Assembly (NCBI GenBank): GCA_050012255.1
Contig: JBEKHN010000005.1
Span: 1-64,000, forward strand
Reading direction: 5' to 3'
Source of the DNA: Candidatus Bathyarchaeia archaeon
GTDB taxonomy: Archaea > Thermoproteota > Bathyarchaeia > Bathyarchaeales > Bathycorpusculaceae
DNA length: 64,000 bases
Positions within the stretch are counted from its first letter, which is position 1. The number at the start of each line of letters is the position of its first letter. Shown one piece after another: positions 231-63,538 of the stretch. The translations under genes were made by a program, and so were the position numbers. The notes beneath the pieces are model-generated. The model was given only the letters and a program-made list of their open reading frames with translations. It had not been told where the DNA came from and did not search any database.

Positions 231-611
231 AACAAAAATCTTCTTTTTATATCGAAAATTCTAGGCGCGCGCTAAAAATCACACTCGCGCGCGCTATCGT
301 TATTCTGTAGTTTCTAAATACGATTTGAACGTAATTTGTATTATTGTCAAACATCAATTTCAAAATGCCTATAGGCTTCTTGCAGCATAGCTGTATGGTA
401 GAAGGCGTTGTAATTGCCCAGAGAAAAGCGGAAATCATATTAAACTTTCTTGTGGACCACCGGTTATCGGAAGTTTAACTGTTTTTGCAGTGAACAAGCA
501 TGAGAAACAGACAGTAACTTAGTCTCAGCGCGCGCTGGACGGTGACAGTGAATCAAACAGCAGAGCTTATATCAAGTCATTCGAATAGTGAACATCAAGG
601 TGAAAGACCAA

Positions 612-1115
612 ATGAACAAGACCTTGGAGAACCTGAAAGCAGCGTTTGCAGGCGAGTCTCAGGCAAACAGGCGCTACCTAGCCTTTGCTCAGAAGGCCGA
701 GGAAGAAGGCCGACCGCAGGTCGCCAAACTGTTCAGGGCGGCTGCTGAGGCAGAGACCGTTCACGCGTTGAACCATATGAGGGTCATAGGAGAAGTTAAG
801 ACAACGGCTGAAAACCTGAACGCTGCTGTTGGGGGAGAAACCTTCGAGTTCAAACAAATGTACCCCGAATACCTCAAGATGGCGAAAGAGGAGAAGAATA
901 GTCAAGCGACCTGGAGCTTCAACGTGGCAAACCAAGTTGAACAGGTCCACGCGAAACTCTTCACAAAAGCAGTCAACGCCTTGAAAGCGGGCAATGAACC
1001 GCCAAAAGCCGAATATTACGTTTGCAGCGTCTGCGGAAACACTGTCGAAGATGAACCGCCTGAAAAATGTCCGATCTGTGGAAACCCCAAGTCAAAGTTC
1101 TTTAAAGCAGCTTAG
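612..1115 (+). CDS. rbr: rubrerythrin
   Basis: TLENLKAAFAGESQANRRY, EAETVH, EQVH and C-terminal CSVC/CPIC rubredoxin knuckles. ORF track starts at 588; ATG 612 preferred. Confidence 0.93.
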   Translation: MNKTLENLKAAFAGESQANRRYLAFAQKAEEEGRPQVAKLFRAAAEAETVHALNHMRVIGEVKTTAENLNAAVGGETFEFKQMYPEYLKMAKEEKNSQATWSFNVANQVEQVHAKLFTKAVNALKAGNEPPKAEYYVCSVCGNTVEDEPPEKCPICGNPKSKFFKAA

Positions 1116-1144
1116 AACCGTTCTTTCACGCAGCTTTCTTCTGG

Positions 1145-1486
1145 ATGCCAGAGCCCATGACCATCAAAACACCGAAGGAGTTCTTTGAGAAAGCCTTGCC
1201 GAGCACGTTCGACCCAAGCAAGGCAGGGGGGCTTGAGGCGGTGGTGCAGATGAACGTCACGGGATCCAACGGAGGAGACTGGACGATAATTATCAAAGAC
1301 GGAAAGATGGAAGTAAAGGAGGGAATCCACCCGTCTCCCGAAATCGCGATCAAAATCGTTGACGCGGACTTTGTTGACTTAATCAACCGCAAACAGAGCG
1401 CTCTGACAGCGTTCATGTCTGGAAAAATCCAATTCAAGGGAAGCCTGGCCCTCGGGCTGAGACTCATGGACGCTGGATTCATCTAG
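1145..1486 (+). CDS. SCP2 sterol-carrier-domain protein
   Basis: GGDWTIIIKDG...AFMSGKIQFKGSLALGLRL, typical of SCP2. Confidence 0.85.
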   Translation: MPEPMTIKTPKEFFEKALPSTFDPSKAGGLEAVVQMNVTGSNGGDWTIIIKDGKMEVKEGIHPSPEIAIKIVDADFVDLINRKQSALTAFMSGKIQFKGSLALGLRLMDAGFI

Positions 1487-1534
1487 GATGTCTAAGGCTT
1501 GTCTTCCCTCAAGGTCTGATGCGACAAGAATTGA

Positions 1535-4735: not shown

Positions 4736-5620
4736 TTATGAACATATACCTATTTTCATCATCTCTCTTGGATGCCTCAGCATTTTTAAGGGACTTTGAA
4801 AGGTCCCTGCCAGACACCCACAATTGGAGCAGTCCGCATTGTTTCCAAAACACCGCCTTCTGTTCCATGAAGCGTCGAAATGTAACACTTCATCGCCCCA
4901 GTAGCATGGACCAGTATGGTCTGGGTATTCATACCATTTTATCATCGCTTTGCTCAAAAGAAAATCTTTTGGGTATAATGTCTTCACTCGTTTCAGTTCT
5001 TTTACTATGGTTTTTCTCTCCTTTATTCCTACAACCAGAGGAACAGTGACATCGGTTCCACCTGTGCATATGTTACAAACGACACCTTTGAAACCGTTCT
5101 CTTTTGCAATTTTTATAACGTCCTCAAGCTCTTTGTAATTATCCCTCGTGATTGTCATATTGACAACAACACGCTTATCCCCTGAAAAGTTCTTCACCAC
5201 TTTTGAGAAAACATGGTCTCCTCTGATTGAATCATTTGTTTTTTGAGACCCATCTATTGAAGCATAGAGCCTATGATTGAATTCTTCTGGTATCTTAATT
5301 GTTCCGTTTGTTATGACATAGACAAAAGGAAATATCCTGTGGGCAAGCATAAGAACATCAATCCTGAGCGCAGGCTCCCCACCAACCAGAAGAATGTTCC
5401 TAATTCCTGACTTGTACAGTTCTTTGAACCTTTGTTCCCATACGTCTATGGATAGCTCTTGTTTGTTAAATTCGTCTTTACCGTGAAAATGATAGCAATG
5501 TTTGCATCTGAGATTACAGTTGTCCGTCACATCAACTTCTGCAAAATACTTCACTCCAAATATGCTTCTCTTTAGCTCAAGCCAAAATAGGTACAACAAT
5601 GCGCGCGCATATTTTTCCAT
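4736..5620 (-). CDS. radical SAM protein
   Basis: CNLRCKHC (CxxxCxxC), GGEP, TNG and a Cys-rich C-terminus; more AT-rich than its flanks. Confidence 0.9.
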   Translation of the reverse strand: MEKYARALLYLFWLELKRSIFGVKYFAEVDVTDNCNLRCKHCYHFHGKDEFNKQELSIDVWEQRFKELYKSGIRNILLVGGEPALRIDVLMLAHRIFPFVYVITNGTIKIPEEFNHRLYASIDGSQKTNDSIRGDHVFSKVVKNFSGDKRVVVNMTITRDNYKELEDVIKIAKENGFKGVVCNICTGGTDVTVPLVVGIKERKTIVKELKRVKTLYPKDFLLSKAMIKWYEYPDHTGPCYWGDEVLHFDASWNRRRCFGNNADCSNCGCLAGTFQSPLKMLRHPREMMKIGICS

Positions 5621-6446: not shown

Positions 6447-7055
6447 CCCCACACACGCTCACAAGATGTGCTCAAAACAGATTCCGTTTGATGGAAATAA
6501 GGCAGAATTAGGTTTGGCGGGGTCGCTTAGGTCAAAGCTCACGTTTGAACTCTTAAGCCCTCTCTATTGACATCTTGTCGGTTTGCATCACGCGCGTAGT
6601 CAAGAGTGTAAATCTCTCCAATTGAAAGAATATACAGGTACCTTATGTTTTCAAGGCCCAGTTTTTATCTTTTTGCAGCACAAACTCATCTTTTTCAACG
6701 TTGTCTACTGAAAAAAGCAAAAAATACTTCAAACGGTAAGTATCAATGGATGAGTGTGGTGGATGGTCGTTCTCCCTTCTCCTTTCATCACCATCCTCCT
6801 CATGAAACATGTTCTATTCATACTAAGTCCCAAAGCACTTTGGGAAATCGCAAAGGGCAAGAAATGGATTCCAGGCAGTTCTACGGGTTCTAGCGCGTGC
6901 TTGCTTGTTAATGTTCGCGTTGGGCTCATTATGATTTTCCGATCAAGACGAAGACTGAGAGTTGATGTTTTTGTGGCTGATGGGTTGATGCTTCACCTCT
7001 TGCGCGCGCGCCGTAGTTGAGTGCGTCCTGATCTGGTTCATGAGTTCAGCGTCGC

Positions 7056-9353
7056 TCAAGCTGGCAGTTTGGTTTGTCGCTGTCCTCTAACCTCATCATA
7101 AGTGGTCTTTACGGAATAGCCGAAAGGACTGAGCAGGTTGGCGGCTGACGCGTATAGAAGGAGCAGGTACTTTTTGACGTCTGAGCTCGTGTTCTTCTCT
7201 ATCAACTCTTCAGCAGTAACCCTTCGGTCGTAGCGTTTGTTCTCGGCGCTGGTGAAGAGGAACTTCACGTTTTTTCCAGCGGTAACTTCGACGCCTTCTT
7301 TCATCAGTTGTTTGGCTGCGATGACTTGACTGACCATCTGCTTGTACATCTTCGGGTCCTTGGACAGGTGCTTCGTGATTATCAGGTCCCAGACAGAAAC
7401 GTCTCCTGCAAGGAGCTTCTCTCTGAAGTCTCTTAAAACCTTCAACACGTCAGGGATCTTCTCCAGAAATTCCTTCGAGTTCTTGGCCTCTGCAAGCGCT
7501 TCCAGCATTCTGGTCTGAGCATCTTGCACGAATGGAGGCGTGTCTCTTCTTCTAACCTCCAGGCCTCTGACCTTGATTTTGCCATTCTCCATCACTCCGT
7601 AGTAGCGATTCAAAACGCCGACGTTTGGATGCATCCTAGACGGTAGAAATACGATCCAGTTGTAGCGGCCTTCAAAGCTCAGTGGGATCTTGGTCTCTTC
7701 AGCGATGTGCCTGCAGAGTTCGTGATATTCCTCGTCTGTGGCCCCCTTCTTCTTCAGCCACAGAGAATCAACGATACCATGAATGACCCTGAACCCCTTT
7801 TGTTCGGCCATTCTTGACGCTTTCAAGAAAGCATCTCTGCCGAAAGCACAGACGCCGATGTGTCCGTCTACAGTTCCGAATCTTGCGTTTCTGTAGCCGA
7901 GATAGCCAAAACACGTGACGAGAATCCATTTCAAAGCCGTCTGACGATTATCATAAACCATCCTGAGTCTCTCGTCGTTGGTCTCCGATTTCAGCTTCTT
8001 GTAGAGAAGCCTCTTCGCGATCACAGATTTCAGAGCTTTGGGAACGATTCCAACCCTTTTCTCGCAGATGTTATATCCAAGCTCGGGAATGCGGAGTTTC
8101 GAGTCGGGACAGCATTTGCAGAGAACTGTTTCGGCAGAAATGTTGTTATTAACCATCACAGTCGGGTACATTGAGGCAAAGTCAACTTCGCCAACGTCGT
8201 CGTGAACTCCGACCTCTGGCTCATAAACGAAGCCTCCTCGGTCTCCGACTAGCAGCTCAAGAGTGGATTTGAAGGCTTCTGGGATGCTTTTGTTCCTAGG
8301 AACTAAAACTTCGTCTTTTATGGCTTGGTAGAACTGAATGGACGACATGCTTGAGCCGATTGACGAACGCGCAGCCGTGTGCAACGATACCCTGCAAGTT
8401 CTGGCTATCTCATACAGCCCATCCAGTCCACACTCAGCCAAGATGAACGTGTTCTTCTCGTCAACATGGACCCTGCCGTACAATCGTCTCATCGGAGCGC
8501 GATAATACGTTCGCCCATAGGAAAAGAAGGTTCTCCCCCGAACGTTTCTTGCAACAAGAGGAACCCCGTCTCTGCTCAGAACAAGCTTATCCAAAACCCC
8601 GTTGATGACTGCCCTGCGCACGAGATACGGAAAAAGATAGGAATCTCCACCTTTGGTAACGATGATGTCTGGGTCAAGTTCTGCGACAGTCCGTGCCAGC
8701 CGAAGCAGCATGTCTTTCTCATCACCCGAATCAACGATCACCTTGTCATCGCCTTGGCTCACGACCACCTTGCCGATCGGGTCAGTGATCTTGGCAATCT
8801 TGCCCTGTTTGGCAACCTCAACGTCGACTTTCGAGATGCGCAACGGCGGAACCGCGTAGTCCACGCTTTCAGCGGAATCTAGAAGACAGTACTTCAACTG
8901 GGAATCTTCAGACTCAACCTCGACGAATGCCAGAGGAAAAACGTCGCGATTGTAGAAGTACAGCTGCTCGTGTTTCAAGTCGCAATTGAAAACGTGATAC
9001 TGCAAGTATCTTCCGGCCTTGAGGACTCTCTGAGTAAACGACGGTGAAGCTCGGCAGTCTTTCAGAGTCACTTCCAAGACTTTGGACTGTTCGGAGTCAG
9101 TTGTGTCTGCGTATCTTCGGACAAAATCCCAGGAGACAACGGCCCTATCGTAAATGAATTGACCGGCAAGTCTCTCCAGGCTGTCTTCATTCCCTGAAAC
9201 GTAGATTTTGGGTTTGAAACTGTCCGTAAAGCGTAGGCGTTCTCCGTTTTCAGCTATGACCCAAACCGCGAACTCTCCAAGCGCGGAAGGATATACGTCG
9301 AGTACCCAGCCTTTCACCCGATCAGGGTTGGGCAAGCTTCTGCTTGATTGCAA
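7056..9353 (-). CDS. polB2: family B DNA polymerase, PolB2 group
   Basis: DFASMYP (motif A), KWILVTCFGYLGY (B), degenerate HGIVDSLW (C), no clear exonuclease motifs; operon context. Confidence 0.88.
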   Translation of the reverse strand: MQSSRSLPNPDRVKGWVLDVYPSALGEFAVWVIAENGERLRFTDSFKPKIYVSGNEDSLERLAGQFIYDRAVVSWDFVRRYADTTDSEQSKVLEVTLKDCRASPSFTQRVLKAGRYLQYHVFNCDLKHEQLYFYNRDVFPLAFVEVESEDSQLKYCLLDSAESVDYAVPPLRISKVDVEVAKQGKIAKITDPIGKVVVSQGDDKVIVDSGDEKDMLLRLARTVAELDPDIIVTKGGDSYLFPYLVRRAVINGVLDKLVLSRDGVPLVARNVRGRTFFSYGRTYYRAPMRRLYGRVHVDEKNTFILAECGLDGLYEIARTCRVSLHTAARSSIGSSMSSIQFYQAIKDEVLVPRNKSIPEAFKSTLELLVGDRGGFVYEPEVGVHDDVGEVDFASMYPTVMVNNNISAETVLCKCCPDSKLRIPELGYNICEKRVGIVPKALKSVIAKRLLYKKLKSETNDERLRMVYDNRQTALKWILVTCFGYLGYRNARFGTVDGHIGVCAFGRDAFLKASRMAEQKGFRVIHGIVDSLWLKKKGATDEEYHELCRHIAEETKIPLSFEGRYNWIVFLPSRMHPNVGVLNRYYGVMENGKIKVRGLEVRRRDTPPFVQDAQTRMLEALAEAKNSKEFLEKIPDVLKVLRDFREKLLAGDVSVWDLIITKHLSKDPKMYKQMVSQVIAAKQLMKEGVEVTAGKNVKFLFTSAENKRYDRRVTAEELIEKNTSSDVKKYLLLLYASAANLLSPFGYSVKTTYDEVRGQRQTKLPA

Positions 9354-14854: not shown

Positions 14855-14983
14855 CACCTAACAGAACCTCATTTTCTATGTGTACGCGCCTAGAGGAAGA
14901 AGCCATGACAAGGGTAAGAACTGGCTATTCTTATGTTTTTCGTAGACAAGGACCAATCTGTCTTTATTTCGCGAAATAAGGCT

Positions 14984-15106
14984 TGGTGGGGTCGCTGGGA
15001 TTTGAACCCAGGATCGCCAACGCCCCAGGCTGGTATACTAAACCACTCAAGGTAACGGTAGACCAGTATACTATACAGTCACCGTCACTAGCTATACGAC
15101 GACCCC
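14984..15106 (-). tRNA. tRNA-Pro(GGG), CCA encoded, with a 44-nt insertion (15046-15089) at D-loop position 17/17a
   Basis: GGGGTCGTCGTATAGCT-[44 nt]-TGGTTTAGTATACCAGCCTGGGGCGTTGGCGATCCTGGGTTCAAATCCCAGCGACCCCACCA folds into a 79-nt cloverleaf once the insert is removed. Confidence 0.9.
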
Positions 15107-17340: not shown

Positions 17341-17529
17341 TCAAAAGCGCGCGCGCTTTCGCGCTCTTCGCCTCCAACCCAGCACACACCAGCTAACCTC
17401 CAAAACAATCCTATCAGCACCACCACGACAAGACTCATCAACACTCAAATGACCCAAAAACTCGGCCTCAGAATCAAAAACACCCTTACAGAAACGACAG
17501 CAACAAAAGCCACCACGTACAGCCCTCAC
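17341..17529 (-). CDS. small Zn-finger-like protein
   Basis: CRFCKGVFDSEAEFLGH; GTGA overlap with the upstream ORF; runs into GCGCGCGCGC at 17347. Confidence 0.5.
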   Translation of the reverse strand: MRAVRGGFCCCRFCKGVFDSEAEFLGHLSVDESCRGGADRIVLEVSWCVLGWRRRARKRARF

Positions 17530-17777
17530 GTAAGACCATCCGACTCCTCATCATCGAAATCGTCATCATCACCGTAAACAACGTCCTGAGGCAACAACTT
17601 AACACCCTTAGGAACAACAGCCCTACGACACAAATGGTCAGGCTCAGCACCATCCACAAACTGACATGCATCAATACACGATTCAACCCGACAACAATGC
17701 TTCTTATCAAATGGACACTTCTTGACTGAACGCCAATAACGAATCGCCTCCTCACCAAATAACTCACCCTCCAACAT
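17526..17777 (-). CDS. small Cys-rich protein with acidic tail
   Basis: 83-aa ORF directly downstream of rep in the same operon. Confidence 0.5.
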   Translation of the reverse strand: MLEGELFGEEAIRYWRSVKKCPFDKKHCCRVESCIDACQFVDGAEPDHLCRRAVVPKGVKLLPQDVVYGDDDDFDDEESDGLT

Positions 17778-21599: not shown

Positions 21600-21793
21600 G
21601 AGCGCGCGCAAATGCGTAATCAAGGAAAAAATGCAAGATCTTAAATGGATTTCATCTAATGCATTTCCACAAGCTTTCTGAAGTCTTTTGTCGGTTCATT
21701 TATTCCAATCATTCGAAGGGCAGCCCACATTGTTGCCTGAGCGCGCGCGTTGACACTGGCGCTCCTGTGGACCAAAATAGGAAAAAGAGTGAG

Positions 21794-24016: not shown

Positions 24017-24100
24017 TTTTGTTTCTCCCTTCTCCTTATTCTTCACGTATATGTTTCCACTGCACGGACTTGGAGATTCTGAAATTGTCGTAGCGCGCGC

Positions 24101-24161
24101 GAAACACCGAAACCGAGAACAACACAACCAAGACGAAACTAACAACTGCTTTTCTCTTCAT
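24101..24161 (-). pseudogene. orphan signal-peptide fragment
   Basis: GGGGAGAGG RBS, then MKRKAVVSFVLVVLFSVSVF running into CGCGCGCGCTA. Confidence 0.55.
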
Positions 24162-24300
24162 TTCCTAAACCTCTCCCCGTTTTCCCTGGAACAAGTCTGC
24201 TCGACCAATGATTGTTAGCCCATTAGTGCTATTTAAACTCTGTGAAACAATGTTTCGACCCTTACGAGCGCGCGCTGAAAATGAAGCGTCTGATACAGGT

Positions 24301-24549: not shown

Positions 24550-24654
24550 CGCGCGCGCTAAAAAACACCTTAGCCCAGTGTTTCTTGGTTCCAGTCAAAA
24601 AAGGGGAAAGAGGCCGCGAAGAAGCGTTCAAGTGGAGATATCGCCAGCGAAGTC

Positions 24655-33875: not shown

Positions 33876-34385
33876 ATGGTGAAGATTCATGATAGAAAAT
33901 TCGTTTCAGCAGACCCGGACAAGTGCGTAGGATGCCAAGTGTGCGAGTACATCTGCTCATGGACGAAGGAAAAAGCCTTCAACCCGTTGAAATCCAGAAT
34001 ACGCGTCGTGAGGATAAACCAGCTGATAAACATGGCAGTCACGTGCAGACTCTGCGAAGACCCGCCCTGCGTTGCCGCATGCCCAAGAGAGGCGCTGACC
34101 CAATCAGAAGAAACAGGACTCGTGTCCGTGGACAAAGACAAGTGCAACGGCTGCGGATGGTGCATCGAAGCATGCGACTACGGCGCAATCATGCTGCATC
34201 CAGACAGCAAAGTGGTCTACATTTGTGACTTGTGCAAAGAAAAAGGGGAGCCCCAATGCATCAAATGGTGCCCAGAAGAAGCCCTAGACCTCGTCACGAG
34301 CGACGTCCTGGCACAGAAGGCAAGAATCACAGCGGTGAAGAAACTCTTCCAAGAAGCCGTACAAGAAACAACAAAGAAGTCCTAG
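33876..34385 (+). CDS. 4Fe-4S dicluster protein (AOR partner)
   Basis: Multiple CxxCxxCxxxC motifs. Confidence 0.9.
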   Translation: MVKIHDRKFVSADPDKCVGCQVCEYICSWTKEKAFNPLKSRIRVVRINQLINMAVTCRLCEDPPCVAACPREALTQSEETGLVSVDKDKCNGCGWCIEACDYGAIMLHPDSKVVYICDLCKEKGEPQCIKWCPEEALDLVTSDVLAQKARITAVKKLFQEAVQETTKKS

Positions 34386-34409
34386 CACGCGCTAACTTAT
34401 TCAAAAGTA

Positions 34410-36180: not shown

Positions 36181-36303
36181 TCTGAGGTCGTCCGCGCGCA
36201 TCGAGCTTGGCGGAGAGTCTGTTGTAGACTTAAGAAACTGTTCATTGTGCTCAACTGTCACGCTGGTTTCTCGTTTCATCTGCTCTGTCGCCCTAGCGCG
36301 CGC

Positions 36304-44315: not shown

Positions 44316-44396
44316 GGGATGTAGCGCATCCAACTCGGGGATAACAAGCGTCCCCTGTTTCACAGCACACAGGAAGAGCTCTTTGAAACCGAGTTC

Positions 44397-45155: not shown

Positions 45156-45279
45156 CCGAAAGACCTCCGCCGATAAACACGTCGTATACTTGAAAGCAAC
45201 TTGAACTTATGCATTATACTGCCTATGACCAATCCGTACTGAAGACGTTCATGGCTAGGTTCAACAAAAAGAAGAGCCG

Positions 45280-46221: not shown

Positions 46222-46458
46222 CGGTCTTTACCCGCTTTAGGGAGACATCCCTTAATATCACTGTCGCAACTTATGGGAAAAGTTTTCTCACAAGCCACAT
46301 GTGCGTTTTGTCATGGACAGCGAGCAACGTTTATATTAACAATTCGGACTCTGAAAGCTTTCCAAGAAGAAGGACTACTCATCCATGTCACACGTCAACT
46401 CCAGACCTGCAGCATTGTGCTTCGTTTCATGTTGGAGAGACGTTGAAGGATGTGACTT

Positions 46459-51956: not shown

Positions 51957-52065
51957 CGTGCTTCTGTGCTTGTGTGAGTTGAGTTTGTGTAGGCTCGGTG
52001 TTTCGCGTTTGACCCCCCTCGTGTTTTTTAGTAACGTCAGTTGTAATGTTGTGTGGTAACAAGTC

Positions 52066-52650
52066 TTGAAGAAGCAGACAGGTATGTGGGTCGATGCTCA
52101 AGTGTGGGGTGCCTACAGGATTCTTTGCAGCCGCGAGAAGCTGCGGCCGTCCGAGCCGTTAGAGGAGTTTCTTAAACTTGTGCTGCGGACCGGTTCGGCT
52201 TTATCGGTTTTGAACATGATGCAGGGTATGGCGAAGGCGAGGCTTCAAGGTTTGGAAGCTTATGCTCGCGTACTCCTCAACTGGTACAAAAATGGAAAGC
52301 AGTGGGTCTACGTCTCAGATGAGGGTGAGGCCCCTGTGGAAACGATGCTTTTGCACGCGTTGAAGGACGTTGCGGACCCGCAGCTGCGCAATGATATACA
52401 GGAAGCCCTAATGATGAAGCCCAGCAAACAGGCCGACGAGAAAGAAGGGAAGAGAAGAATAGATGCGAAAGAAGAGCCAGCGACAAAGCCAGAGGTGCCC
52501 GCAGAGCCTGCAGCAACCGCATTCTCGGAAAGAATCGGAATGATCGAAAAGCAAGTTGCGAATCATGAAATGGGCCCGGAACAGGCGATGAAAATGCTGG
52601 AGAAGATACGTCAAATGCGAAAAAAACTCAAGACTGATGAACAGGGTTGA
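52066..52650 (+). CDS. hypothetical protein (probable mobile-element relic)
   Basis: 194-aa ORF at the edge of a patchwork region; possible RHH-like N-terminus. Confidence 0.6.
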   Translation: MKKQTGMWVDAQVWGAYRILCSREKLRPSEPLEEFLKLVLRTGSALSVLNMMQGMAKARLQGLEAYARVLLNWYKNGKQWVYVSDEGEAPVETMLLHALKDVADPQLRNDIQEALMMKPSKQADEKEGKRRIDAKEEPATKPEVPAEPAATAFSERIGMIEKQVANHEMGPEQAMKMLEKIRQMRKKLKTDEQG

Positions 52651-53026
52651 AGCTTGAACCGCGCAGAGTTCCAGGATCCCAAAAAACCATAAACCCTAGA
52701 CACGAGCAATTGTCCTTCCACCCCTAATAAAAGCGCACGCGGATTTGTGAACGTGCCAAGGGGCTCTCAACGCGGGCCGGCCGGGCGCGCGCGGTTCATG
52801 CGACCGATGGTCGTCTTCACTTGATAGTTAGTTACAAAACTGTACGCGGATTTTATTGAATTCGCGTTTATTCATAAACAAAGAAAATGATGGGGATTTG
52901 TGCGTTTGTAAGTGATTTTCCGTTCTCACTTCTTTACGGGCTTTTTCTTCTTTCCTTTTGCGGCTTTGGGCACTATTTTGGCCTCAAATACAATTATCGC
53001 GTTTTTTTATTTAAATTTATGGTTGG

Positions 53027-53411: not shown

Positions 53412-53729
53412 TAGCGCGCATGCCTGTTCCCAAATTCGTTTGCAGAGTATCTTGTGCTTCCGGCTTTACTCCGCCTATGGACAGTGATGGACGTCGGGAT
53501 ACGACGAGCATCGTTCAGAAGGCGCAAATCAACTCTATCACACTTAAAAATAGGAATTTAGGAACACGCTAGCGCGCGCTATGGCGATTGGGGGTGTTTC
53601 AGTCATTAACCACACTTTGAAGTCTTTCGATCAGAACCATTTCTATCCATTCGTGCGAAGGATTCCGTGCTATAACATTTCTTTCTGCGTAGCCTCTGCC
53701 AAGGCTTAGATTCAGCCAAGCTTGTAGTC

Positions 53730-56700
53730 TTATCTTCCGTCCGGTTTAGCCTTGGGTATGTTTATTGTGAATTGTGCTCCTTTGCCATGCGTGCCTGTTT
53801 CGCTGATCGTCCAGCCATAAACCTCCATCATCCTTCTAATCAGGTAAAGCCCGTAGCCTGAGCCTTTGCCAGTAGTGAAACCTTCAGTGAAAAGCTTGGA
53901 TTTTGCGTCTCGAGATATGCCAACGCCATCATCCTCATAGATCAGCTTCAGCTTGTCCTCGAATTCCTCATAGCGAACTCTGATTTGAGTTAACTTCTCG
54001 CCATACTTGAGCGAGTCATCAATCAAATTGTAGAAAAGCTGTCTCAGGAGCGAATCAGCCAACACGGTCAATCCTCCGCACTCGTTCGTTATTCTGATGC
54101 CCTTCAAGTCTGGGAAGAGCGACGCTGCCTCGTCAACAGCCTTGCCAACGTTCATGTTGACCAGTTGTTCGACGCCCAGCTTCTCGTATGTTCTGGCAAA
54201 CTCGAAAATGGCTTCCACGTTTCTGACCGCGTTTTCCATGTCGGCCAACTGCTCCAACGCTTCAGGGTTTCCAGCCAGCTTTCGCCTTAGCAGATAAGCG
54301 TTTCCAGTTACCGCGCAAAGCTTGTTTCGCACATCATGCCTCGTGAGGCTACCAACAACCCGCAGTTTTTCCTCCAGATTCTTCCTTTCCAAAATGTCGC
54401 GGAATACCACCAGATCCGCCGGTTTACCTTTATAATCGATTTTCGCCGCGTTTATTTCGTACACCAGTTTTCCCCCGTCCTTCTTCAGCATTTCGACTTC
54501 GTACGGTTCCACGTGCACTCCCATCATCCTTTCGGCCAAGTTCTTTATCATTACTGCTTTGGTCCTCGCCCCAAACATTTCTACTTTCAGCAAGTTCTTT
54601 CCGACAAGCTCTTCTTTCTTGAACCCAGTTATTTCTTCCACTTTTTGAGTGACTTCCAAGATTTTTCCTCTTCCATCCACGACAGCCACCGGGTCAGCCA
54701 TAAGGTCAAACAACATTTGGAAATGCTTTCTCGACTCTTCCGATTCTTCCTGCGCCCTTTTCAGCTCTGTGATGTCCTTGTACAAAACTATGTCACCTAA
54801 ATGCTGGCCTTGGAGCACGATTGGGGCAGAGGACAAGGCCACAGGAATTGGAGAGCCCTTTTTGTTCTTCCTAACAGTCTCATAGTAGACGTATCCTTCC
54901 TTGCCTCTCTGGGCTAACATCAACGCCTCTTTTCTCCTATCCTCTGGCACCACAAAGTCGTCGAGGAATTTTTCCTTGACTTCGTCAAAAGAGTATCCAA
55001 AAAGCTCGGTGAAACGCGGATTAACGTTCAAGACTCTTTCGTTTGGGTCTACGTACACTGCCGCCTCGGGATTACTCATGAATAGCTGTTCAAACTTCTC
55101 TTGATTCTCTTGAATCAGCTTTTCTGCGTTCTTTCGTTCAGAGACATCTCTCATGACTACTTGAACGCCTACAGGCTTGCCATCTTCAATCAATAATCCA
55201 GGATGCACTTCTGCCCATCGACTCGTTCCATCTTTCCGAACATAAAGGAATTCAACTGGTGAAAGTGGTTCTCCATTCATCAGTGAGCTGAGCATCTCTT
55301 GAAATTTTGGAATGTCCTCCACTGGAATAGTCTTCAACTCCGTGAATGGCTTGCCAACGATTCCTTCGTCAGAGTCATAGCCCACTAGCCTCAGGAAACT
55401 ACGGTTGGCCGATGTGACTATGCCTTCTGCATTCACAGCTACTATGCCGTCGGGAGCCAGCTCAATCAGATTTCTATATTTTTCCTCAGATTCCTTCAAC
55501 GTTTGTTCTGCTTTCTTGCGTTCGGTGATGTCTCTATGTATGACTTCTATACCGATGACCTTGCCTTTCTGTTTATACGTGCTAACACTGAGCTCAAGCG
55601 GAATGGATTCTCCTTTCTTGTTCATTCCCCTTATTTCGTATACGAGGGGAAGTTCCTCTTCTGAGTATTTTGTCTGATATTTTTCTAGAACCATGGCGCG
55701 ATCGTCAGGGTGGACAAAATCCAAGAACGCTTTGCCTTTCAGTTCTTCATCAGTGTATCCTGATGATTTCTTGAATGCTGCGTTGTAGTCTATGAGGCGA
55801 CCTTCTCTTCCAACGAAGATGCCCACAGGGTCTTGTATGCTTTCGAACAAGCCCCTAAACCTTTCCTCAGACTCTCTTAACAATTCCTCGCTTTTCTTGC
55901 GTTCAGTAATGTCTTCTATTGCACTCACAAAGCCTATTGGATTGCCAGAAATGTCTCTTAGAACGCTCGCACTAACTGACAGCGCCCGTCTGCTGCCATC
56001 ATTGGCGATAATTGTGTATTCTATGCTTCTCATTAGACCTTGCTTCAGGACTTTTTCCATGTTCTCCATTGCCCTTTGCCTGTCTTCCTCAGCGATGGGC
56101 TCAAGAGCACTTCTTCCGACAGACTCGCTTCTTGACGAATACCCAAAAATCTCCTGAGCCCGCCCATTGCACTCCACAATTTTCCCATTCAGATCAATAA
56201 CGAGAATGGCGTTAGGAGATGCATCGAACAAGCTCTGCAACCTCCTCTGCCTGTCAGATGACTCGCTTTCGTTTTTCTTGGTTTCAGTGATGTCCAGAAC
56301 TATGCCGACTGTGCCTGCAAATCGTCCATCGTGATCAAAAAAAGGGGCACCGGAAATCAGAGCATTCCGAACAGTGCCGTCGCTCCTGCGGAATACGGCT
56401 TCATAGCGGCTGGCCTCTCCTTGGCGGCGTCGTTGTGTCTCATTTTCTATTTTTGCCCAGTTCTCATCGTCGACTATTTTGTGCAGGTTCATGCCTGCAA
56501 GCTGGTCTTGTTCGTAACCAACGATGTCAGCGAATGCTTTGTTGGCATAAACAATGTTCTCTTCAGCATCCACATACGAGATTCCTTCAACCGCGTTCTG
56601 ATAAATTGTTCGGAGCTTCTGGACTGTCTCCTTCATCTGAGCTTCTGCGGAGTGTTTCTCCACAGTAGACCGCAGACAATGTGCCAGTTCACAATACACT

Positions 56701-57095
56701 GCTTCAGGATCGCCAGTCTTGTTAACATAGTGGTCAGCGCCCAGACTCCACGCCTTAACAGCAACTTCCTCTCTTCCTTTTCCAGTGAACATGATAAATG
56801 GGATAGTGTTTCCGTTCTTTCTCAGCATTTCCAGAAATTCAAGCCCATCTTTCCCAGGCATCTGATAGTCCGAAACGACCGCGTCATAATGCTCTTTCTG
56901 AAGCTTCGCTAACGCTTCTTCAACTGAACTCGCGGCGTCCACTTGGAATAGGCCCTGCAACTCCAAACATTGCTTCGCAACCTTCAGCAAAGCAGGCTCG
57001 TCGTCAACATGCAAGACACGAATCTTCGACTTCTCTGTGGAATCGACAACTATCTCGGCATGTGACTGAACAACAGATTCAACCATGCAAATCAC
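53730..57095 (-). CDS. hybrid sensor kinase: REC, about six PAS domains, HisKA/HATPase
   Basis: VLHVDDE, DYQMP; PAS repeats ending DITERK; RHDVRNKL, DDGVG, GSGYGL. Confidence 0.93.
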   Translation of the reverse strand: MICMVESVVQSHAEIVVDSTEKSKIRVLHVDDEPALLKVAKQCLELQGLFQVDAASSVEEALAKLQKEHYDAVVSDYQMPGKDGLEFLEMLRKNGNTIPFIMFTGKGREEVAVKAWSLGADHYVNKTGDPEAVYCELAHCLRSTVEKHSAEAQMKETVQKLRTIYQNAVEGISYVDAEENIVYANKAFADIVGYEQDQLAGMNLHKIVDDENWAKIENETQRRRQGEASRYEAVFRRSDGTVRNALISGAPFFDHDGRFAGTVGIVLDITETKKNESESSDRQRRLQSLFDASPNAILVIDLNGKIVECNGRAQEIFGYSSRSESVGRSALEPIAEEDRQRAMENMEKVLKQGLMRSIEYTIIANDGSRRALSVSASVLRDISGNPIGFVSAIEDITERKKSEELLRESEERFRGLFESIQDPVGIFVGREGRLIDYNAAFKKSSGYTDEELKGKAFLDFVHPDDRAMVLEKYQTKYSEEELPLVYEIRGMNKKGESIPLELSVSTYKQKGKVIGIEVIHRDITERKKAEQTLKESEEKYRNLIELAPDGIVAVNAEGIVTSANRSFLRLVGYDSDEGIVGKPFTELKTIPVEDIPKFQEMLSSLMNGEPLSPVEFLYVRKDGTSRWAEVHPGLLIEDGKPVGVQVVMRDVSERKNAEKLIQENQEKFEQLFMSNPEAAVYVDPNERVLNVNPRFTELFGYSFDEVKEKFLDDFVVPEDRRKEALMLAQRGKEGYVYYETVRKNKKGSPIPVALSSAPIVLQGQHLGDIVLYKDITELKRAQEESEESRKHFQMLFDLMADPVAVVDGRGKILEVTQKVEEITGFKKEELVGKNLLKVEMFGARTKAVMIKNLAERMMGVHVEPYEVEMLKKDGGKLVYEINAAKIDYKGKPADLVVFRDILERKNLEEKLRVVGSLTRHDVRNKLCAVTGNAYLLRRKLAGNPEALEQLADMENAVRNVEAIFEFARTYEKLGVEQLVNMNVGKAVDEAASLFPDLKGIRITNECGGLTVLADSLLRQLFYNLIDDSLKYGEKLTQIRVRYEEFEDKLKLIYEDDGVGISRDAKSKLFTEGFTTGKGSGYGLYLIRRMMEVYGWTISETGTHGKGAQFTINIPKAKPDGR

Positions 57096-57309: not shown

Positions 57310-57719
57310 CTCTCGAGTTTGATTATACTAAATTCTGCTGAGAGGTTTCGCTCATTTCCCCTCTTTTTCTGTTTCTAGGAGACGATCATCCTTGAATGAG
57401 TGTAAAGTCGTTCTTGTTTTCAGAAGGTATGAAGAGTTTTGGAGGTTCTGTTTTTCAGAGTGCAGAGATTTCAAGCTCGGTTGTGCTAAGTCTTGCAAGT
57501 TTAGGAAGGCTCTTGTTATCTCCCATGCTGATCGATCCAGCTACTTCTTGCCGTTAATTCATAATACTTGTCGATGGAGAGATGAGCAGCGCGCGCTACC
57601 AAAAAAACAACCTGCAATAAATCTATTGCTATCCTGTGTTTCTCTGTTCTTTAGCTCTTTCAGCTTGACTAGAGCCTTTTCTTTGAGGGGCAATCTGGAT
57701 TTCTGCGATATTTGAAGAA

Positions 57720-57875
57720 CTAAGTTATACTTGTTCCTGTTTTCTCTCTACAATACCAACAATAGCCTTCTTCATCCATATTATAGTCTTTACATTTTGG
57801 ACAAAGTCTTCCTTGTCTTGATTCTTCAAGAAATCGTTTTCTTGGTTCTTTCGAAGTTTTTTTCTCTTCACTCAT
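57720..57875 (-). CDS. 51-aa Zn-finger protein
   Basis: GAGG RBS; CPKC...CWYC. Confidence 0.6.
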   Translation of the reverse strand: MSEEKKTSKEPRKRFLEESRQGRLCPKCKDYNMDEEGYCWYCREKTGTSIT

Positions 57876-57924
57876 TTTTAAACCTCTAGTTTGTCTTCTG
57901 TTTACGCGCAGATAATGCGCGCGC

Positions 57925-58101
57925 CGTGAAAGACAATGATTCACCCGTCCTCTCCTTGTAATTATGCATATACTCACGGGCCTTAGTCACGTCAAGCTCA
58001 ATCAACCCGTAGACCCGATTCTTCACTGCCATGTTATCCAGCATCTCAATACCCCAACCGCGATTCTTCCTTACTTCCCGAAAAGTCCCTATGTAATCCA
58101 G
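57925..58101 (-). pseudogene. N-terminal fragment of a 2-oxoacid dehydrogenase E2-like acyltransferase domain
   Basis: VYGLIELDVTKAREYMHNYKERTGESLSFTA, then GCGCGCGC at 57917-57924. Confidence 0.65.
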
Positions 58102-58319
58102 CTCTCATCCCAACCCAAGACTATTCGCAGATACTATTTGTCAACCTTGGCAGTAAAAGACCTTGCGCAACATAATCTAAGCGCGCGCTACAATGTTGAG
58201 ACAGCACTGCAGAATATCAGACATAATCAAGGGTGGCGTTGTCAGGTGGCTACCTCATGAAGAGGCTTGAGAGAACTAAGAGACTAAAGAGAGATAGACT
58301 ATTGCGCTAATCTCGCGCG

Positions 58320-59569: not shown

Positions 59570-62500
59570 TCATCTTTCCCCTTTCAGCCAGCTCTTTATT
59601 CCAAGTTCTCTCACAACAATCAGTACAGGTTCAGGTTCGTGTGACTTGTACTTGCCATTCTCGTCCAAGTACAGCACTGTTGGCTTCAGTGAAAACATAC
59701 CTTGTACCGTCGGCTTAAGGGTAATTCTTATTTCTTCTGTCTTAAGTGGGTCAAGTCTCTTTCCTTTCAGGTTGATGTAGCTGTCCTCTACTCGACAGGT
59801 TTCGGGTTTTTCTGTCAGCTCGAAACCTTTTGGGATGATTTCCGTGATCTTTGTCAAGAGGGCAGCGCCCTTCCCGGAATTCACAAGTTCGATCTCTATC
59901 TCAAGGTTTTCGCCAACCTTCAGGTCCCTTTGACGGATTATCAGGTTTGCTTGTATGTCTGCATGCTCAAACCTTTCTAATCCAACTGCTTCTTCGTGCG
60001 AAGGCGTTGGAACTGACATGCTGGCGGTGCTGGAGGCAACAGCTGGCGCTACCAAAACTTTGTCAAGGGATAGTGCAAATTCACGTTTTTCCTTAACTCT
60101 CTCGAGGGTTCTGAGAACGTCGCTGGCTTTTTTGGTGTATCCTGCTTTATTGAACAGCTTGGCCGAACGATCTAAATACCCTTCAACCAGCCCATAGAAC
60201 TTCGTTTTGTCTTTGTGATCAGCTTCAGTTTCAGCTTTGCCCATGTAGAAGTAGGCGTCAAACAAAGCCTCAGTCGCGCTGACCCAGGTGGAGGCATTTC
60301 CGAATCCAGCATCCATGTAATAGTCGGAGGCGCTCTCCATGTAGTGTTTGGCTTCATAATAGAGGATCACATTTCTTGTCGACTTGTAATTCGCGCCCAG
60401 CTCAAGTGCTTTGCATATGCTGGAGTTGCCGGCCGCGAACATGGCAGTCCTCTTTTTCACGCTGCTTTCTTTGGCCTTTGCAAACAGTAGAGATGCTTCC
60501 GCATAAAGGCTCGCGTCGGCCATTTCATCAGCAACGCTCATCTTTTGCCAAGCTTGACACATATAAATCATTGAATAAAGCTCCTTAACTTCAGCTTCAA
60601 TTTCCATCGTTTGGACAATCTTCTCCAGCTCTCTTGCTGCAAGCGCATATTTTTCTCCGCTCAATGCGCAGTCTCCGGAGGCGTAAAGGTTCTTGGCCTC
60701 CTCGATGAGGACTCTCGTAAGACAATAGTCTTCTCTCAGATTGGAAGCCTTAATCAGTTTGAATGCCAATTCTTTTTCATCCAAGCCTGCAATCTCATTG
60801 CGTTTTGTTTCAATAGATTTTCTGGCTTGACGGAAAAGTCTAGCTGCTTCTTCGAAAGCATGAATGCATTCTTGGCTTTGATCGTTCCTACTCAGGCCTT
60901 CCGCTTGTTCAAGACAAGCCCACGCTGAGTAGTTCGGAGCTATGTAGATCCATGATTTCGATGAGTTGAGATATGCAGCTGCTCTCTCGTAGTTGTCTTT
61001 GGACTTACCAAACTCCTCTCTTTCGTGGTTGTATTTTGCTCTCTCAATGCAACTCCAAGCCTGCATGTACGTCACATAATCCGCGTAAAAACTACTAAGT
61101 TGAGGAGTGTTGTGAGCGCCAAGCGTGAACTGCTTTGAGGCAGACTCAAAGTTGTTTGCAGATTCCAAGTATTCACCAAGACGATCATAGATCACAGCAG
61201 TCTGCCAGTAAGCTTCAGCGACCCTAGTAGGGAGATCTGCATTCTTGTTAAGCTGAACAGCGCTTTGATAGGTTTCTACTAGTTTCTTCAGGATTTCTTT
61301 TTCCGCGGTGGTCTGGTAGAGTTGGTTCAATATGCTTCCCAATTCCGTCTCAAAACTTCCCAGTAGTGCGAAGAGTTCTCTACGTGAAGGATAGGAAGCT
61401 ACGTGCTTTTCGAAGAGTCCTATGCAAGTTTCCATGTTAGAAACCGCCTTTTCAAGGAGCTCTTTTCTGTTCTCTTTTGTTTCCTCTAATCTGCTAAGTT
61501 CAAGCAGGATAAGTGCAAGTGCTTCGTAAGGAAGAGATCGGGGCAACGCATACTGAGGACGCAGTTGCTCTGTATAGTGAACGGCTTTCTCTCCAAGTGT
61601 CATAGCCTCAACCAGTAGCTCTCTTTTCTCAGCCCCCGTTCTTAGAGTTGACAAGTCATAGAGGGCATGCGACAGTTCAGATGAACTGTGAAAAATCGCA
61701 TGTGTTGAACCTATGCGTTGTGCATATTCAAGGCCATTCTTCCCTAGATTTACGGCTTTCTTAAGTAATTCATGTCTTGCTTCCAATTCCGTCTCTATAC
61801 TTGCTAGTTCTCTAAGATTCGCGACGTATCCATACCCATAAGAATGAAAGATCCCGGGACTGTAATTAGCAGGAACACTGTAGGCGATGGCTTTGCCAGC
61901 ATACTCCTCACATTTCGCTGATGTTTCTTTTATTTCCTCTAGGTTTTCTTTCCAGGTCAGACTCCATGCCGTTGAAAATGCCAAACCGTCAAACGCCCCA
62001 GACATAATACGGTAATCGTTTACTTTGCTGCAATATTGGAGTGCTTTGTTGAAGAGGCTTGATCCCACTTCCACTCCAGCGCCAAGATCATTCTCAGCAA
62101 ATCCTAAACAAACAGTTGATTTGGCTAGAAGGTAGGTGTCACCGATTTTTTCCGAGATTCTGATTGCTTCTTTCACATATTCGAATGCCCTCTGCTCGCA
62201 TTCCTTTCTTTTCGTTTCCAACCGTAGAGACATGGCGGCGTCAACGCAGTTAATGCTTGTTACGTGATATGCTCTCGCGAGTTCGTGCTCATCATCCGCC
62301 TCAGAGAATATTCGTATCGCTCTCTCCCCGAGGCTTATTGCCTCGTCCAGTATGTTCTCCCTCATCTGCATGTCCAGTTCTAGGTCCAATCGATCAGATA
62401 GGATGCAAGCTAGTCTGGTGCAGGTCTTCCCCAACTCGAGTTGGTCTCTTTTTTCATGATAGACTTTCAAGACTTCCCTCTCAATCCTGCAGCCTTCATC

Positions 62501-62860
62501 AAGTAGCGTTTTCTTTTCAGACCCTTCTGATGCAAGCCAATAGCCCATGTAAGCAATCATTGCATCGCAACGCAAAATACGAGGTGTCTTTTCTGACTCA
62601 TTCAGTCTTCCATGAAGTTCCTTAGCCTTCTCATAGCTTAGAATAGCCTGACGCAATCTTTCTCTAAACTCATCATTACTTTCAGCCTGAAATGCAGAGC
62701 GGTAAGAAGCATGACCTGACCGCTCATAAATCTCCGCTATCTTCGAGAAATCATCTTGGGGCAGCAGATTCAGTGCTTTCTCATACGACTCGGCAGCTCC
62801 AGACCAATCATATTCCCTCTCTAGTCGTTCTGCCTGATGCAGAATTTCCTCCACACTCAA
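59570..62860 (-). CDS. large TPR/alpha-solenoid protein with C-terminal Ig-like domain
   Basis: Repeated A..YEKA-type helices; beta-rich C-terminus. Confidence 0.8.
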   Translation of the reverse strand: MSVEEILHQAERLEREYDWSGAAESYEKALNLLPQDDFSKIAEIYERSGHASYRSAFQAESNDEFRERLRQAILSYEKAKELHGRLNESEKTPRILRCDAMIAYMGYWLASEGSEKKTLLDEGCRIEREVLKVYHEKRDQLELGKTCTRLACILSDRLDLELDMQMRENILDEAISLGERAIRIFSEADDEHELARAYHVTSINCVDAAMSLRLETKRKECEQRAFEYVKEAIRISEKIGDTYLLAKSTVCLGFAENDLGAGVEVGSSLFNKALQYCSKVNDYRIMSGAFDGLAFSTAWSLTWKENLEEIKETSAKCEEYAGKAIAYSVPANYSPGIFHSYGYGYVANLRELASIETELEARHELLKKAVNLGKNGLEYAQRIGSTHAIFHSSSELSHALYDLSTLRTGAEKRELLVEAMTLGEKAVHYTEQLRPQYALPRSLPYEALALILLELSRLEETKENRKELLEKAVSNMETCIGLFEKHVASYPSRRELFALLGSFETELGSILNQLYQTTAEKEILKKLVETYQSAVQLNKNADLPTRVAEAYWQTAVIYDRLGEYLESANNFESASKQFTLGAHNTPQLSSFYADYVTYMQAWSCIERAKYNHEREEFGKSKDNYERAAAYLNSSKSWIYIAPNYSAWACLEQAEGLSRNDQSQECIHAFEEAARLFRQARKSIETKRNEIAGLDEKELAFKLIKASNLREDYCLTRVLIEEAKNLYASGDCALSGEKYALAARELEKIVQTMEIEAEVKELYSMIYMCQAWQKMSVADEMADASLYAEASLLFAKAKESSVKKRTAMFAAGNSSICKALELGANYKSTRNVILYYEAKHYMESASDYYMDAGFGNASTWVSATEALFDAYFYMGKAETEADHKDKTKFYGLVEGYLDRSAKLFNKAGYTKKASDVLRTLERVKEKREFALSLDKVLVAPAVASSTASMSVPTPSHEEAVGLERFEHADIQANLIIRQRDLKVGENLEIEIELVNSGKGAALLTKITEIIPKGFELTEKPETCRVEDSYINLKGKRLDPLKTEEIRITLKPTVQGMFSLKPTVLYLDENGKYKSHEPEPVLIVVRELGIKSWLKGER

Positions 62861-63147
62861 CGCCTCTGATAACAGTAAACCATTAGAAGTTTAAGAACAA
62901 GTATCTGAAAAGTCTTTTCATGAATGAAGCACTCGATGGATACGGAGCGATTTTCAGTTTTGCGGATGGTTTTGCGACGTAGATTTCCGCGCGCGCTACA
63001 GACAGACACAGAAAACCAACAAAAAACAAAACAAGAGATGAAGGCTGTTCAATGGAGAAATATCTGACAATGAGTTTCAGAGATTACGTTTGAAAGTATG
63101 CCTATTATTCTTGGACTGTTGCACGCTTTTTTTGTGTGGCGCGCGCT

Positions 63148-63249
63148 ACGGTTCGAGAAGTGGTTCTGATACCATGCTCATACTGCGGCGGGCTCATGCC
63201 CCAAACTTCCCTCTTCTGTCCAAACTGTGGAGCAAGAAGAAGAGCCTGA
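63148..63249 (+). pseudogene. C-terminal Zn-ribbon fragment
   Basis: TVREVVLIPCSYCGGLMPQTSLFCPNCGARRRA*; begins right after GCGCGCGCT. Confidence 0.6.
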
Positions 63250-63538
63250 CGAACTGTATCAACATTCCATGAACATTTTCAAAACCCTGAAAACCCCATA
63301 TACAGCATACTGCGCTGACCAGCACCTGAACGGGTTTAGGCTTCTAGGGAATTGAACCCAAAAGGAGGCGGGCTCAAATCTCGTATAATCCTACGGCTTT
63401 GGATTTGGGCAAAAATCTGTACGCGCGCTTTCACATATATTCAGATTGTCCAACACGGGTTCTATGCCGATCCAGCCAAGAATTCATAAGGAATTGGCAA
63501 TTGAAGGGTTACATGAAACAAGGCATCTTGGCGCGCGC

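Follow-up and report, generated by a model that had tools for sequence, protein, structure and literature searches.

The 64,000-nucleotide stretch of archaeal DNA analysed here (hereafter the window; positions C5:1-64000 of the Bathyarchaeia assembly G000, which comprises 2,351,129 bases in 38 contigs at 48% G+C) carries many copies of the self-complementary octamer GCGCGCGC. This motif looks like a junction scar that is itself a site of renewed breakage and joining of DNA, and it is neither a regulatory site nor the end of one repeat family. The explanation that we favour, with a probability of roughly 0.4, is that break repair produces it as a short self-complementary GC tract at the joint and later makes use of it again.

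Abundance and shape of the motif

The window holds 22 overlapping matches to GCGCGCGC, against 0.84 expected from 100 dinucleotide-preserving shuffles (standard deviation 0.88, maximum 4; none of the 100 reached 22). They fall at 20 sites, because those at 7002 and 17347 are (GC)5, and all 20 had been located correctly in a preliminary description of the window. Of the 12 shorter or variant copies also listed there, nine are alternating runs of 6-7 nucleotides (nt) (4017, 4182, 16008, 34977, 36193, 53414, 57252, 58314 and 63422) and the one at 34383 is a one-mismatch form, AGCGCGTGCT, whereas those at 5668 and 6891 are not runs of at least 6 nt. The perfect 12-mer reported at 53570-53581 does read TAGCGCGCGCTA.

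The same octamer is the most frequent 8-mer of the whole source genome, counted 434 times with overlaps, in 368 separate runs (the runner-up word has 287); its observed/expected ratio under an order-3 Markov model is 13.9, an excess like that of palindromic octamers of the HIP1 type. The consensus is A(GC)3-5T, or R(GC)3-5Y in a wider form, A(GC)4T being the commonest. Among 176 runs of exactly (GC)4, the flank bias is confined to position -1 (A in 68%, A or G in 85%) and position +1 (T in 60%, T or C in 79%), and no position is conserved beyond 1-2 nt on either side. The left and right flanks seem to be independent, as A..T sites number 74 against about 72 expected, by our arithmetic, from the flank frequencies. 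Since nothing is conserved further out, the motif is not the end of a longer repeat, and a flat flank logo together with the absence of flank families in samples of two further genomes, G009 and G089, rules out that it is the tip of one.

Run lengths in the source genome break off abruptly, from 551 (GC)3 and 307 (GC)4 to 57 (GC)5 and three (GC)6; (GC)5 is the longest common class, and no tandem (GC)8 products were seen. The other dinucleotide repeats drop 10-20-fold from three to four units, and only GC repeats differ. Set against a first-order expectation, A(GC)nT occurs 479 versus 654 times at n=2, 81 versus 37 at n=3, 74 versus 2.2 at n=4 and 28 versus 0.12 at n=5, with one copy observed at n=6. 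The 74 exact copies of A(GC)4T compare with 122 copies summed over all 24 one-mismatch variants, which fits ongoing production followed by roughly neutral decay; the variants are mildly transition-rich (mean 7 versus 4.1 copies per variant). A whole family of palindromic fillers was also considered and is ruled out, (GC)n alone standing out among palindromes. Two other words exceed expectation in the source genome, the unrelated palindrome GTACTAGTAC (17 copies versus 0.4 expected) and CCCTAGGG (34 versus 10), and both are probably the ends of another repeat.

Position between genes and at the edges of homology

Coding calls in the source genome come from our own rough gene caller, which gives 2167 confident genes covering 80% of the sequence. 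Of the 368 runs, 317 lie between these genes and 45 within them, and a further 6 overlap a gene boundary. Intergenic DNA carries about 0.4-1.1 runs per kb independently of spacer length, with somewhat higher values after stops and in convergent spacers (0.89, versus 0.53 in divergent ones). This near-uniform density, and the lack of any fixed distance to gene starts, rules out a promoter or operator. Samples of G089 and G009 show the same exclusion from genes: open frames of at least 150 amino acids (aa) hold about 80% of the DNA and contain 7 of 44 and 15 of 57 runs, respectively. In the G009 sample a recurring promoter-like word, GGTT(T/G)GGGGTAAAGTTTTATCC, is interrupted by the motif at varying offsets. 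Within the window no (GC)4 lies in 24559-36295 or 36304-52784, in agreement with the earlier remark that the core operons are free of it.

The proposal of the preliminary description that the motif marks breakpoints holds genome-wide, both for homology tracts within the source genome and for the edges of synteny with a relative; its tie to the accessory DNA of the window has to be widened, as the motif reaches beyond the window and is a patchy feature across the class. We compared 300 bp on either side of each run with the source genome by BLASTN and obtained non-self matches at 198 of the 368 sites. In bins of 10 nt, the starts of these matches cluster from 0 to +20 relative to the motif, with counts of 44, 41 and 28 where the background is about 12, and their ends from -20 to 0, with 42, 38 and 26 where it is about 13; homology tracts cross the motif at just 9 of the 368 sites.

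For comparison between genomes we used G001, a closed, single-contig genome of the same genus that is 92-95% identical to G000, and of which the first 1.2 of 2.35 Mb were covered. Ortholog blocks of at least 300 bp and at least 85% identity numbered 184 and totalled 694,548 bp. Among the 225 runs in this portion of G001, 15 lie inside blocks, 53 at most 25 bp from a block edge and 157 outside, versus 56.6%, 1.7% and 41.7% of random positions; the corresponding counts for the first 400 kb are 2, 14 and 55. Counted the other way round, the motif stands at 90 of the 368 block edges, in either genome, versus 9.9 ± 2.9 (maximum 19) in a control displaced by 150-1500 bp over 200 trials. Some junctions delimit a replaced segment that begins and ends precisely at a motif copy, as at G001 339440-341087.

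Derived deletions and re-use of existing copies

Alleles were compared wherever both 88-nt flanks of a site mapped nearby in the other genome, which was the case for 27 of the 368 G000 sites (against half of G001) and 21 of the 225 G001 sites, giving 48 pairs; the kinds of change and the tallies that follow were read from the alignments by eye. About 9 pairs are conserved, 3-4 of them with a difference of one GC unit, and about 6 involve point variants such as GCACGCGC. In 4 the motif replaces 6-9 unrelated nt, and a single pair (window 7002) is a pure +8 insertion. Two pairs oppose the motif to the end, or to a 40-bp internally deleted form, of a miniature inverted-repeat transposable element (MITE). 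In 17 pairs the motif stands where the other genome holds 67 bp to 3.3 kb. No pair sets (GC)2 against (GC)4 (0 of 48).

Of the 10 events whose long allele is in G000, 8 have a breakpoint within a confidently called gene, so that the allele with the motif is the derived one, a deletion into an intact gene. In 11 of the 17 events the long allele has no (GC) run of three or more units at either breakpoint, and microhomology at the joints amounts to 0-4 nt, frequently GC-rich. A motif common to both genomes lies at one boundary in 6 of the 17, which means that an existing copy was re-used as a fixed end. Among the alternatives that the preliminary description had put forward, addition of the motif at the moment of joining is therefore the best fit, ancestral alleles being mostly without it.

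Distribution across the Bathyarchaeia

We surveyed about 300 Bathyarchaeia genomes of at least 80% completeness, calling motif-rich those with at least 10 copies of A(GC)4T and a low reversed control; kinship among the genomes limits every comparison of a candidate gene with the motif across the class. Among 30 relatives of the source organism, all 10 genomes of its genus hold 7-114 copies (reversed control 0-4), and those of other genera 0-1. The motif-rich set is patchy beyond this: several genera of the same family have 30-40 copies, family f26 has 16-119 in 8 of 10 genomes and f35 13-131 in 5 of 5, and further motif-rich families are f36 (83 copies), f27 (24) and f29 (16). Samples of G009 and G089 (f35) agree with G000 in their most frequent 8-mer, in its flanks and in the length at which the runs stop. 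In family f24 (e.g. genomes G126, G124, G179, G084 and G096) the reversed control T(CG)4A outnumbers A(GC)4T, with 13-26 versus 2-9 copies; this excess may be a phase-shifted analogue, or merely a consequence of higher G+C.

Proposed origin in break repair

Under the explanation that we favour, breaks in dispensable DNA would be bridged by a short, self-complementary, alternating GC tract, whose synthesis might proceed by repeated copying of a GC seed, for instance, or by the addition of tails to the two ends. Such a tract would consist of two half-tracts, each of at most 5 nt and with G first after the last base of the flank (usually A or TA), and together these would form a perfect, alternating palindrome no longer than 10 bases. 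Both this two-part structure and the synthesis itself are inferred. Afterwards the tract would decay by point mutation, gain or lose GC units, and serve again as a fixed end for later deletions or insertions, so that making and re-use together would turn accessory DNA into a mosaic of gene fragments with motif copies between them. More tentatively, a horizontally spread candidate end-processing activity might operate in several Bathyarchaeia lineages, adding (GC)n tails to any two ends and leaving a palindrome that stays reactive.

Several points weigh against repair synthesis. No repair process known to us puts a fixed alternating tract into the joint. The polarity of the deletions rests on weak tools, namely a crude gene caller and one comparison genome used for 1.2 of its 2.35 Mb, and accessory DNA may be imported, in which case lineage-specific copies need not have arisen in place. 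The terminus of a resident insertion sequence (IS) is identical to half of the motif, which here is an unexplained coincidence or, at best, a matter of target choice; moreover, two GCGCACGC sites are allelic to full MITEs and one solo motif to a MITE end, observations that speak for an origin of the motif from that element. Lastly, the distribution of the motif in the class is not matched by that of Ku, reverse transcriptase, an HhaI-like methylase or a family-B DNA polymerase (PolB) paralog.

To take these candidates in turn, G000 has a complete operon of the bacterial type for non-homologous end joining (NHEJ; C10:11572-15305), encoding the LigD PolDom, Ku and a ligase fused to a 3'-phosphoesterase (PE), followed by DUF72, and among relatives this operon tracks the genus. 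Across the class Ku occurs in 89 of 301 genomes. Ku/LigD is rejected as the cause, since by our cross-tabulation about 26 genomes are motif-rich and only about 7 of them have Ku, which is also common in the motif-poor groups g23 (22 of 30), f24 (25 of 53) and f34 (26 of 44). Reverse transcriptase is likewise rejected: PF00078 was not found in G000 and occurs in 1 of about 26 motif-rich genomes. A search of G000 alone gave no match to the Y1 (IS200-like) transposase PF01797, and PolX was not found in the same genome.

The window itself encodes a PolB paralog (7056-9353, minus strand) with a weak match to an exonuclease domain. Its full-length homologues are patchy (130 of 301 genomes at E<=1e-60) and 45% identical in distant families, and the paralog was not found in G018, the closest motif-poor relative tested. 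By our tally 24 of 26 motif-rich genomes have it, but with 130 of 301 overall it was rejected as the cause, and it does not discriminate because it is also found in 39 of 44 genomes of the motif-poor f34. High-identity genes common to G000 and G089 proved to be housekeeping genes. One bacterial-type S-adenosylmethionine synthetase (G000 C6:53309-54541) is 83% identical to its counterpart in G089, against a median protein identity of 44% between the two families, a level of similarity that suggests recent transfer.

A resident element that ends in half of the motif

The element in question belongs to the IS5 superfamily. In G000 its terminal inverted repeat (TIR) reads (T)A/GCGCGC-WW-GC-N-TGTTCC-Y-AAATT, the slash marking the element boundary, with 173 loose matches, about 100 copies that start AGCGCGC and 45 paired MITEs (150-320 bp) of several subfamilies. 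Copies of about 1.08 kb (e.g. C24:15250-16330) carry a frameshifted DUF772 + DDE_Tnp_1 transposase that is IS5/IS1182-like, and an intact copy of 328 aa is present in G009 (C18:148613 to the contig end). Many G000 contigs end in an IS5-superfamily element, so that the element probably breaks the assembly. One MITE of about 165 bp lies in the window at 53412..53579, with ends TA/GCGCGC-AT-GCCTGTTCCCAAATT ... AATTTAGGAACACGC-TA-GCGCGC(GC)/TA, and the motif copy TA(GC)4TA at 53572..53579 is its right terminus plus one extra GC. The fragment end previously placed at 53411 and ascribed to a winged helix-turn-helix paralog is the left end of this MITE instead, and the two open reading frames (ORFs) that we took for the winged helix-turn-helix pair do not align.

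It is thus conceivable, if unlikely, that the motif copies are transposon scars: an IS or MITE with (T)A/GCGCGC ends would excise or lose its interior, two (GC)3 ends would fuse into (GC)3-5, and adjacent deletions during residence of the element would account for the missing flanks. The terminus is half of the motif, two fused ends overlapping by at least one unit predict the observed (GC)5 maximum, and TA is six-fold enriched at solo half-sites (24% versus 4%). The allelic cases given above point the same way, as does the pair in which a solo motif faces a 40-bp MITE that has lost its interior; autonomous copies exist, and the transposase is widespread (65 of 301 class genomes). Solo and occupied alleles oppose each other in 2-3 cases among 11 MITE and 48 solo comparisons, and these may have changed in either direction. 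On the other hand, a single pure insertion allele in 48 contrasts with about 17 alleles linked to deletion. By our count about 44% of MITE ends are TA-flanked, yet TA on the left and on the right are uncorrelated (8 MITEs with both versus about 9 expected).

A further argument against such an origin is that motif abundance does not follow the IS/MITE family across genomes. Counts of TIRs (at most 3 mismatches) and of A(GC)4T are 0 and 39 in G004, 2 and 56 in G008, 2 and 82 in G009, 44 and 92 in G007, and 45 and 41 in G003, and the DUF772 transposase was not found in G004 or G008. The transposase is present in 10 of about 26 motif-rich genomes, and in none of the five f35 genomes (fragmented metagenome-assembled genomes), which hold 13-131 motifs; the ends of 14 whole G089 contigs hold nothing TIR-like. 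No repeat family starting at the motif was detected in samples of G009 (400 kb) or G089 (342 kb), whereas the same procedure applied to G000 as a control found clusters of 99, 14 and 12. Conversely, G238 has the same TIR and 4 transposase matches but only 6 motifs, G155 (6 contigs) has 5 transposase matches and 3 motifs, and homologues of the element in motif-poor f24 genomes also start (G)CGCGC. The idea of a TA-targeting transposon thus stood in so far as a family with (GC)3 termini exists; IS630, which had been named as a candidate, is ruled out because the transposase belongs to the IS5/IS1182 superfamily, and the abundance of the family is uncoupled from that of the motif.

Possible microsatellite, cleavage site or maintained palindrome

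Rather unlikely, in our estimation, is a fragile GC microsatellite, in which short seeds expand by slippage to 4-5 units and the resulting Z-DNA or cruciform-prone tract provokes breaks and survives at the joint. Z-DNA-forming (CG)n does provoke deletions, and GC is the only dinucleotide repeat that behaves in this way here. The boundary motif kept in 6 of the 17 polarised events would be explained, as would one-GC-unit differences at 3-4 of about 10 orthologous sites, and some ancestral breakpoints carry GC, CGC or GCGC seeds (e.g. G001 370826 and 404058, G000 C13:13168). The fragile site of the preliminary description accordingly accounts for the re-use events; it leaves the de novo copies unexplained, for new copies arrive at full length, as +8 or filler (11 of 17), and intermediate (GC)2-versus-(GC)4 pairs are lacking among the 48. 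Slippage explains neither the patchiness among lineages of similar GC content nor the A/T flank bias and the sharp stop at 10 nt.

An enzyme that cuts and rejoins the palindrome is improbable. A nuclease or relaxed recombinase would cleave it, and fill-in followed by ligation would duplicate the site; in one version, restriction-like self-cleavage would be followed by escape. A perfect palindrome with purine/pyrimidine flank bias, fragments with a motif copy at either end (window 24102-24267, G001 339440-341087), the re-use of motifs as boundaries and the presence of two C5 methylases in G000 would all be expected. However, 11 of 17 ancestral breakpoints offer no site to cleave, tandem (GC)8 products are missing, and there are no conserved recombinase arms, the flank logo being flat beyond ±2, which leaves little of the earlier suggestion of a recombinase core site. 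Of the two methylases, one has uncharacterised neighbours lacking Pfam matches. The HhaI-like one aligns to M.HhaI in its catalytic parts only, the specificity domain not aligning, and was rejected as it is not common to the other motif-rich lineages. In the test for depletion of RGCGCY, the background is distorted by the GC runs themselves. A C5 DNA methylase stands back-to-back with an HhH-GPD glycosylase at G000 C6:37259-39024, an arrangement reminiscent of pairs of a methylase and a T/G-mismatch glycosylase.

Finally, a HIP1-like palindrome kept by methylation-linked correction of the very-short-patch type, a process that has been proposed for HIP1 in cyanobacteria, would fit a commonest octamer that is GC-rich, palindromic and lineage-specific, the methylase-glycosylase neighbours and the mild transition bias of the variants, but it is very improbable given that only 45 of 368 runs are coding, that 15 of 225 lie inside conserved blocks, and that the motif arises through insertions and deletions and not by substitution.

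Sites in the window

Assembled contigs support several of the junctions described below. This read-level check used Logan contigs, so that rare variants and excision events lie outside its view. The junctions at 52785, 57589-58181 and 62989-63531 are bridged by contigs of data set X1, which may be the source sample, and that at 63531 also by a 517-bp contig from another study's run (X2).

At the left end of the window, the copy at 265..272 is a (GC)4 flanked by cTAG and TA, and is followed 14 nt further on by C(GC)4 at 286..294; A(GC)4T at 528..535 corresponds in G001 to the point variant GCACGCGC. The (GC)4 at 5601..5608 lies at the start of a radical-SAM ORF (4736-5620, minus strand) and was scored as coding by our caller. 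The (GC)5 at 7002..7011, 45 nt downstream of the PolB gene, is the pure +8 insertion, G001 having GC only, and A(GC)5T follows at 17347..17356.

Five of the eight fragment ends that had been placed at the motif were tested, and apart from the MITE end at 53411 all were borne out; for the others (24549, 63148 and 63539), BLASTN against G000 gave no adjacent paralog. At 21599, A(GC)4 (21602..21609) abuts a 35-aa frame (21495-21602, minus strand) which matches the 34 C-terminal aa of the integrase-like protein encoded at 14983-15990 (41% identity, E 2e-7) and is a remnant of such a protein; A(GC)4G at 21741..21749 is 139 nt from this copy. At 24101, TA(GC)4G (24093..24101) joins the promoter of the gene at 21794-24145 (minus strand) to an unrelated 170-bp fragment, captured or left over (24102..24267), which contains the promoter of a signal-peptide gene with its ~20 initial codons and is closed on the right by A(GC)4T at 24268..24275. 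The fragment matches C7:98109-98278 (87% identity) and C11:18611-18780 (82%), and the paralogous loci on C8 and C10 (left of the joint at 24093) and on C7 and C11 (right) have no motif at the breakpoint. C(GC)4TA follows at 24550..24558.

The decayed one-mismatch copy AGCGCGTGCT at 34383..34392 borders on the left a 2070-bp segment (34393-36464) missing from G001. Within this segment lies TA(GC)4 at 36296..36303, the third of the fragment ends (36304), where homology to many dispersed loci of relatives begins at 36303. The neighbouring sequence at 36081-36287 belongs to a repeat of ~140-205 bp that occurs 25 times in G000, in diverged form (70-80% identity), and dozens of times in G001 and G007, and could be a MITE, a leader or the 5' end of a gene. 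Directly after the end of the core operon stands (GC)4G (52785..52793); one X1 contig agrees with the window as far as 53026, beyond which it has CGCGCGCG and unrelated sequence, a tail not found in G000.

To the right of the MITE, 53730-57095 encodes a response-regulator/PAS/histidine-kinase protein. A(GC)4TA at 57589..57596 is followed by (GC)4 at 57917..57924, which separates two unrelated homology tracts, 57822-57913 (matching C12) and 57926-58089 (matching C13); homology thus stops 4 nt before the motif and resumes 2 nt after it, as the fragment end placed at 57925 implied. The remaining copies are A(GC)4TA at 58181..58188, C(GC)4TA at 62988..62996, (GC)4TA at 63139..63146 and (GC)4 at 63531..63538. 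Three minus-strand ORFs of the window have no Pfam match at all (59570-62860, 1096 aa; 17764-18780, 338 aa; 19828-20598, 256 aa).

Relation to known systems

We found no description of the motif in the literature that we searched, at the level of listings and abstracts. HIP1 sits inside genes too, at positions conserved among relatives. Like the present motif, HIP1 (GCGATCGC) is a GC-rich octameric palindrome, the top word of its genome and lineage-restricted; in cyanobacteria it has been tied to orphan methylases (PMC4390886). The text of that paper, as covered by our term search, contains neither 'archaea' nor 'GCGCGC'. In contrast to HIP1, the motif is 86% intergenic, nearly absent from conserved blocks and placed at the junctions of insertions and deletions, and its distribution does not match that of the one methylase surveyed.

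Repetitive extragenic palindromic (REP) sequences and bacterial interspersed mosaic elements (BIMEs), with their REP-associated Y1 transposases (RAYTs), also provide extragenic palindromes by the hundred. The motif resembles these in number, in extragenic position and in being somewhat enriched downstream of genes, but it is 8-12 nt long, lacks a conserved flanking tetranucleotide or leader and lies at deletion joints, in a genome in which Y1 was not found; it is not the imperfect palindrome of at least 20 nt with a conserved leader that defines REP/RAYT systems. Excision footprints and solo remnants are known for TA-targeting DDE transposons and MITEs (Tc1/mariner, IS630, IS5/PIF-Harbinger). 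With these the motif shares a palindrome made of two terminal half-sites, TA-enriched flanks and a resident MITE with matching ends, and it differs from them in its uncoupled abundance, in that most copies are without TA, and in that most are tied to deletions and not to small additions.

Filler, N and P nucleotides occur at joints made by bacterial Ku/LigD NHEJ and by V(D)J recombination. Here, too, the extra nucleotides at deletion joints are missing from both parents, and G000 has a PolDom-Ku-Lig/PE operon; in contrast, one fixed alternating sequence is found, and Ku is missing from most motif-rich genomes and present in many motif-poor ones. Alternating (CG)n tracts are Z-DNA-prone fragile sites, and TA(CG)3TA forms the centre of protelomerase target sites. 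These are likewise alternating purine-pyrimidine palindromes, sometimes TA-flanked and linked to breakage and rejoining, but they pre-exist or need long arms, whereas the present copies are de novo and armless.

Implications

Because many small ORFs adjoining the motif are gene remnants, annotation of such ORFs calls for caution. The motif stands at roughly one in four of the synteny-block edges between two close species, and even if the copies were transposon scars or microsatellites, they would point to a strong genome-shaping force. Should end-tailing by a horizontally spread activity be true, it would amount to end joining of a new kind, with a fixed sequence signature, that drives deletion, capture and shuffling in the flexible genome. 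If the tract is made in repair, it would be a readable mark of where and how often the genome of an uncultured archaeon broke and was rejoined; it would provide a means to date and map genome erosion, would point to a repair or recombination activity that can be sought by comparative genomics, and would account for the patchwork of gene fragments in the accessory DNA of Bathyarchaeia.

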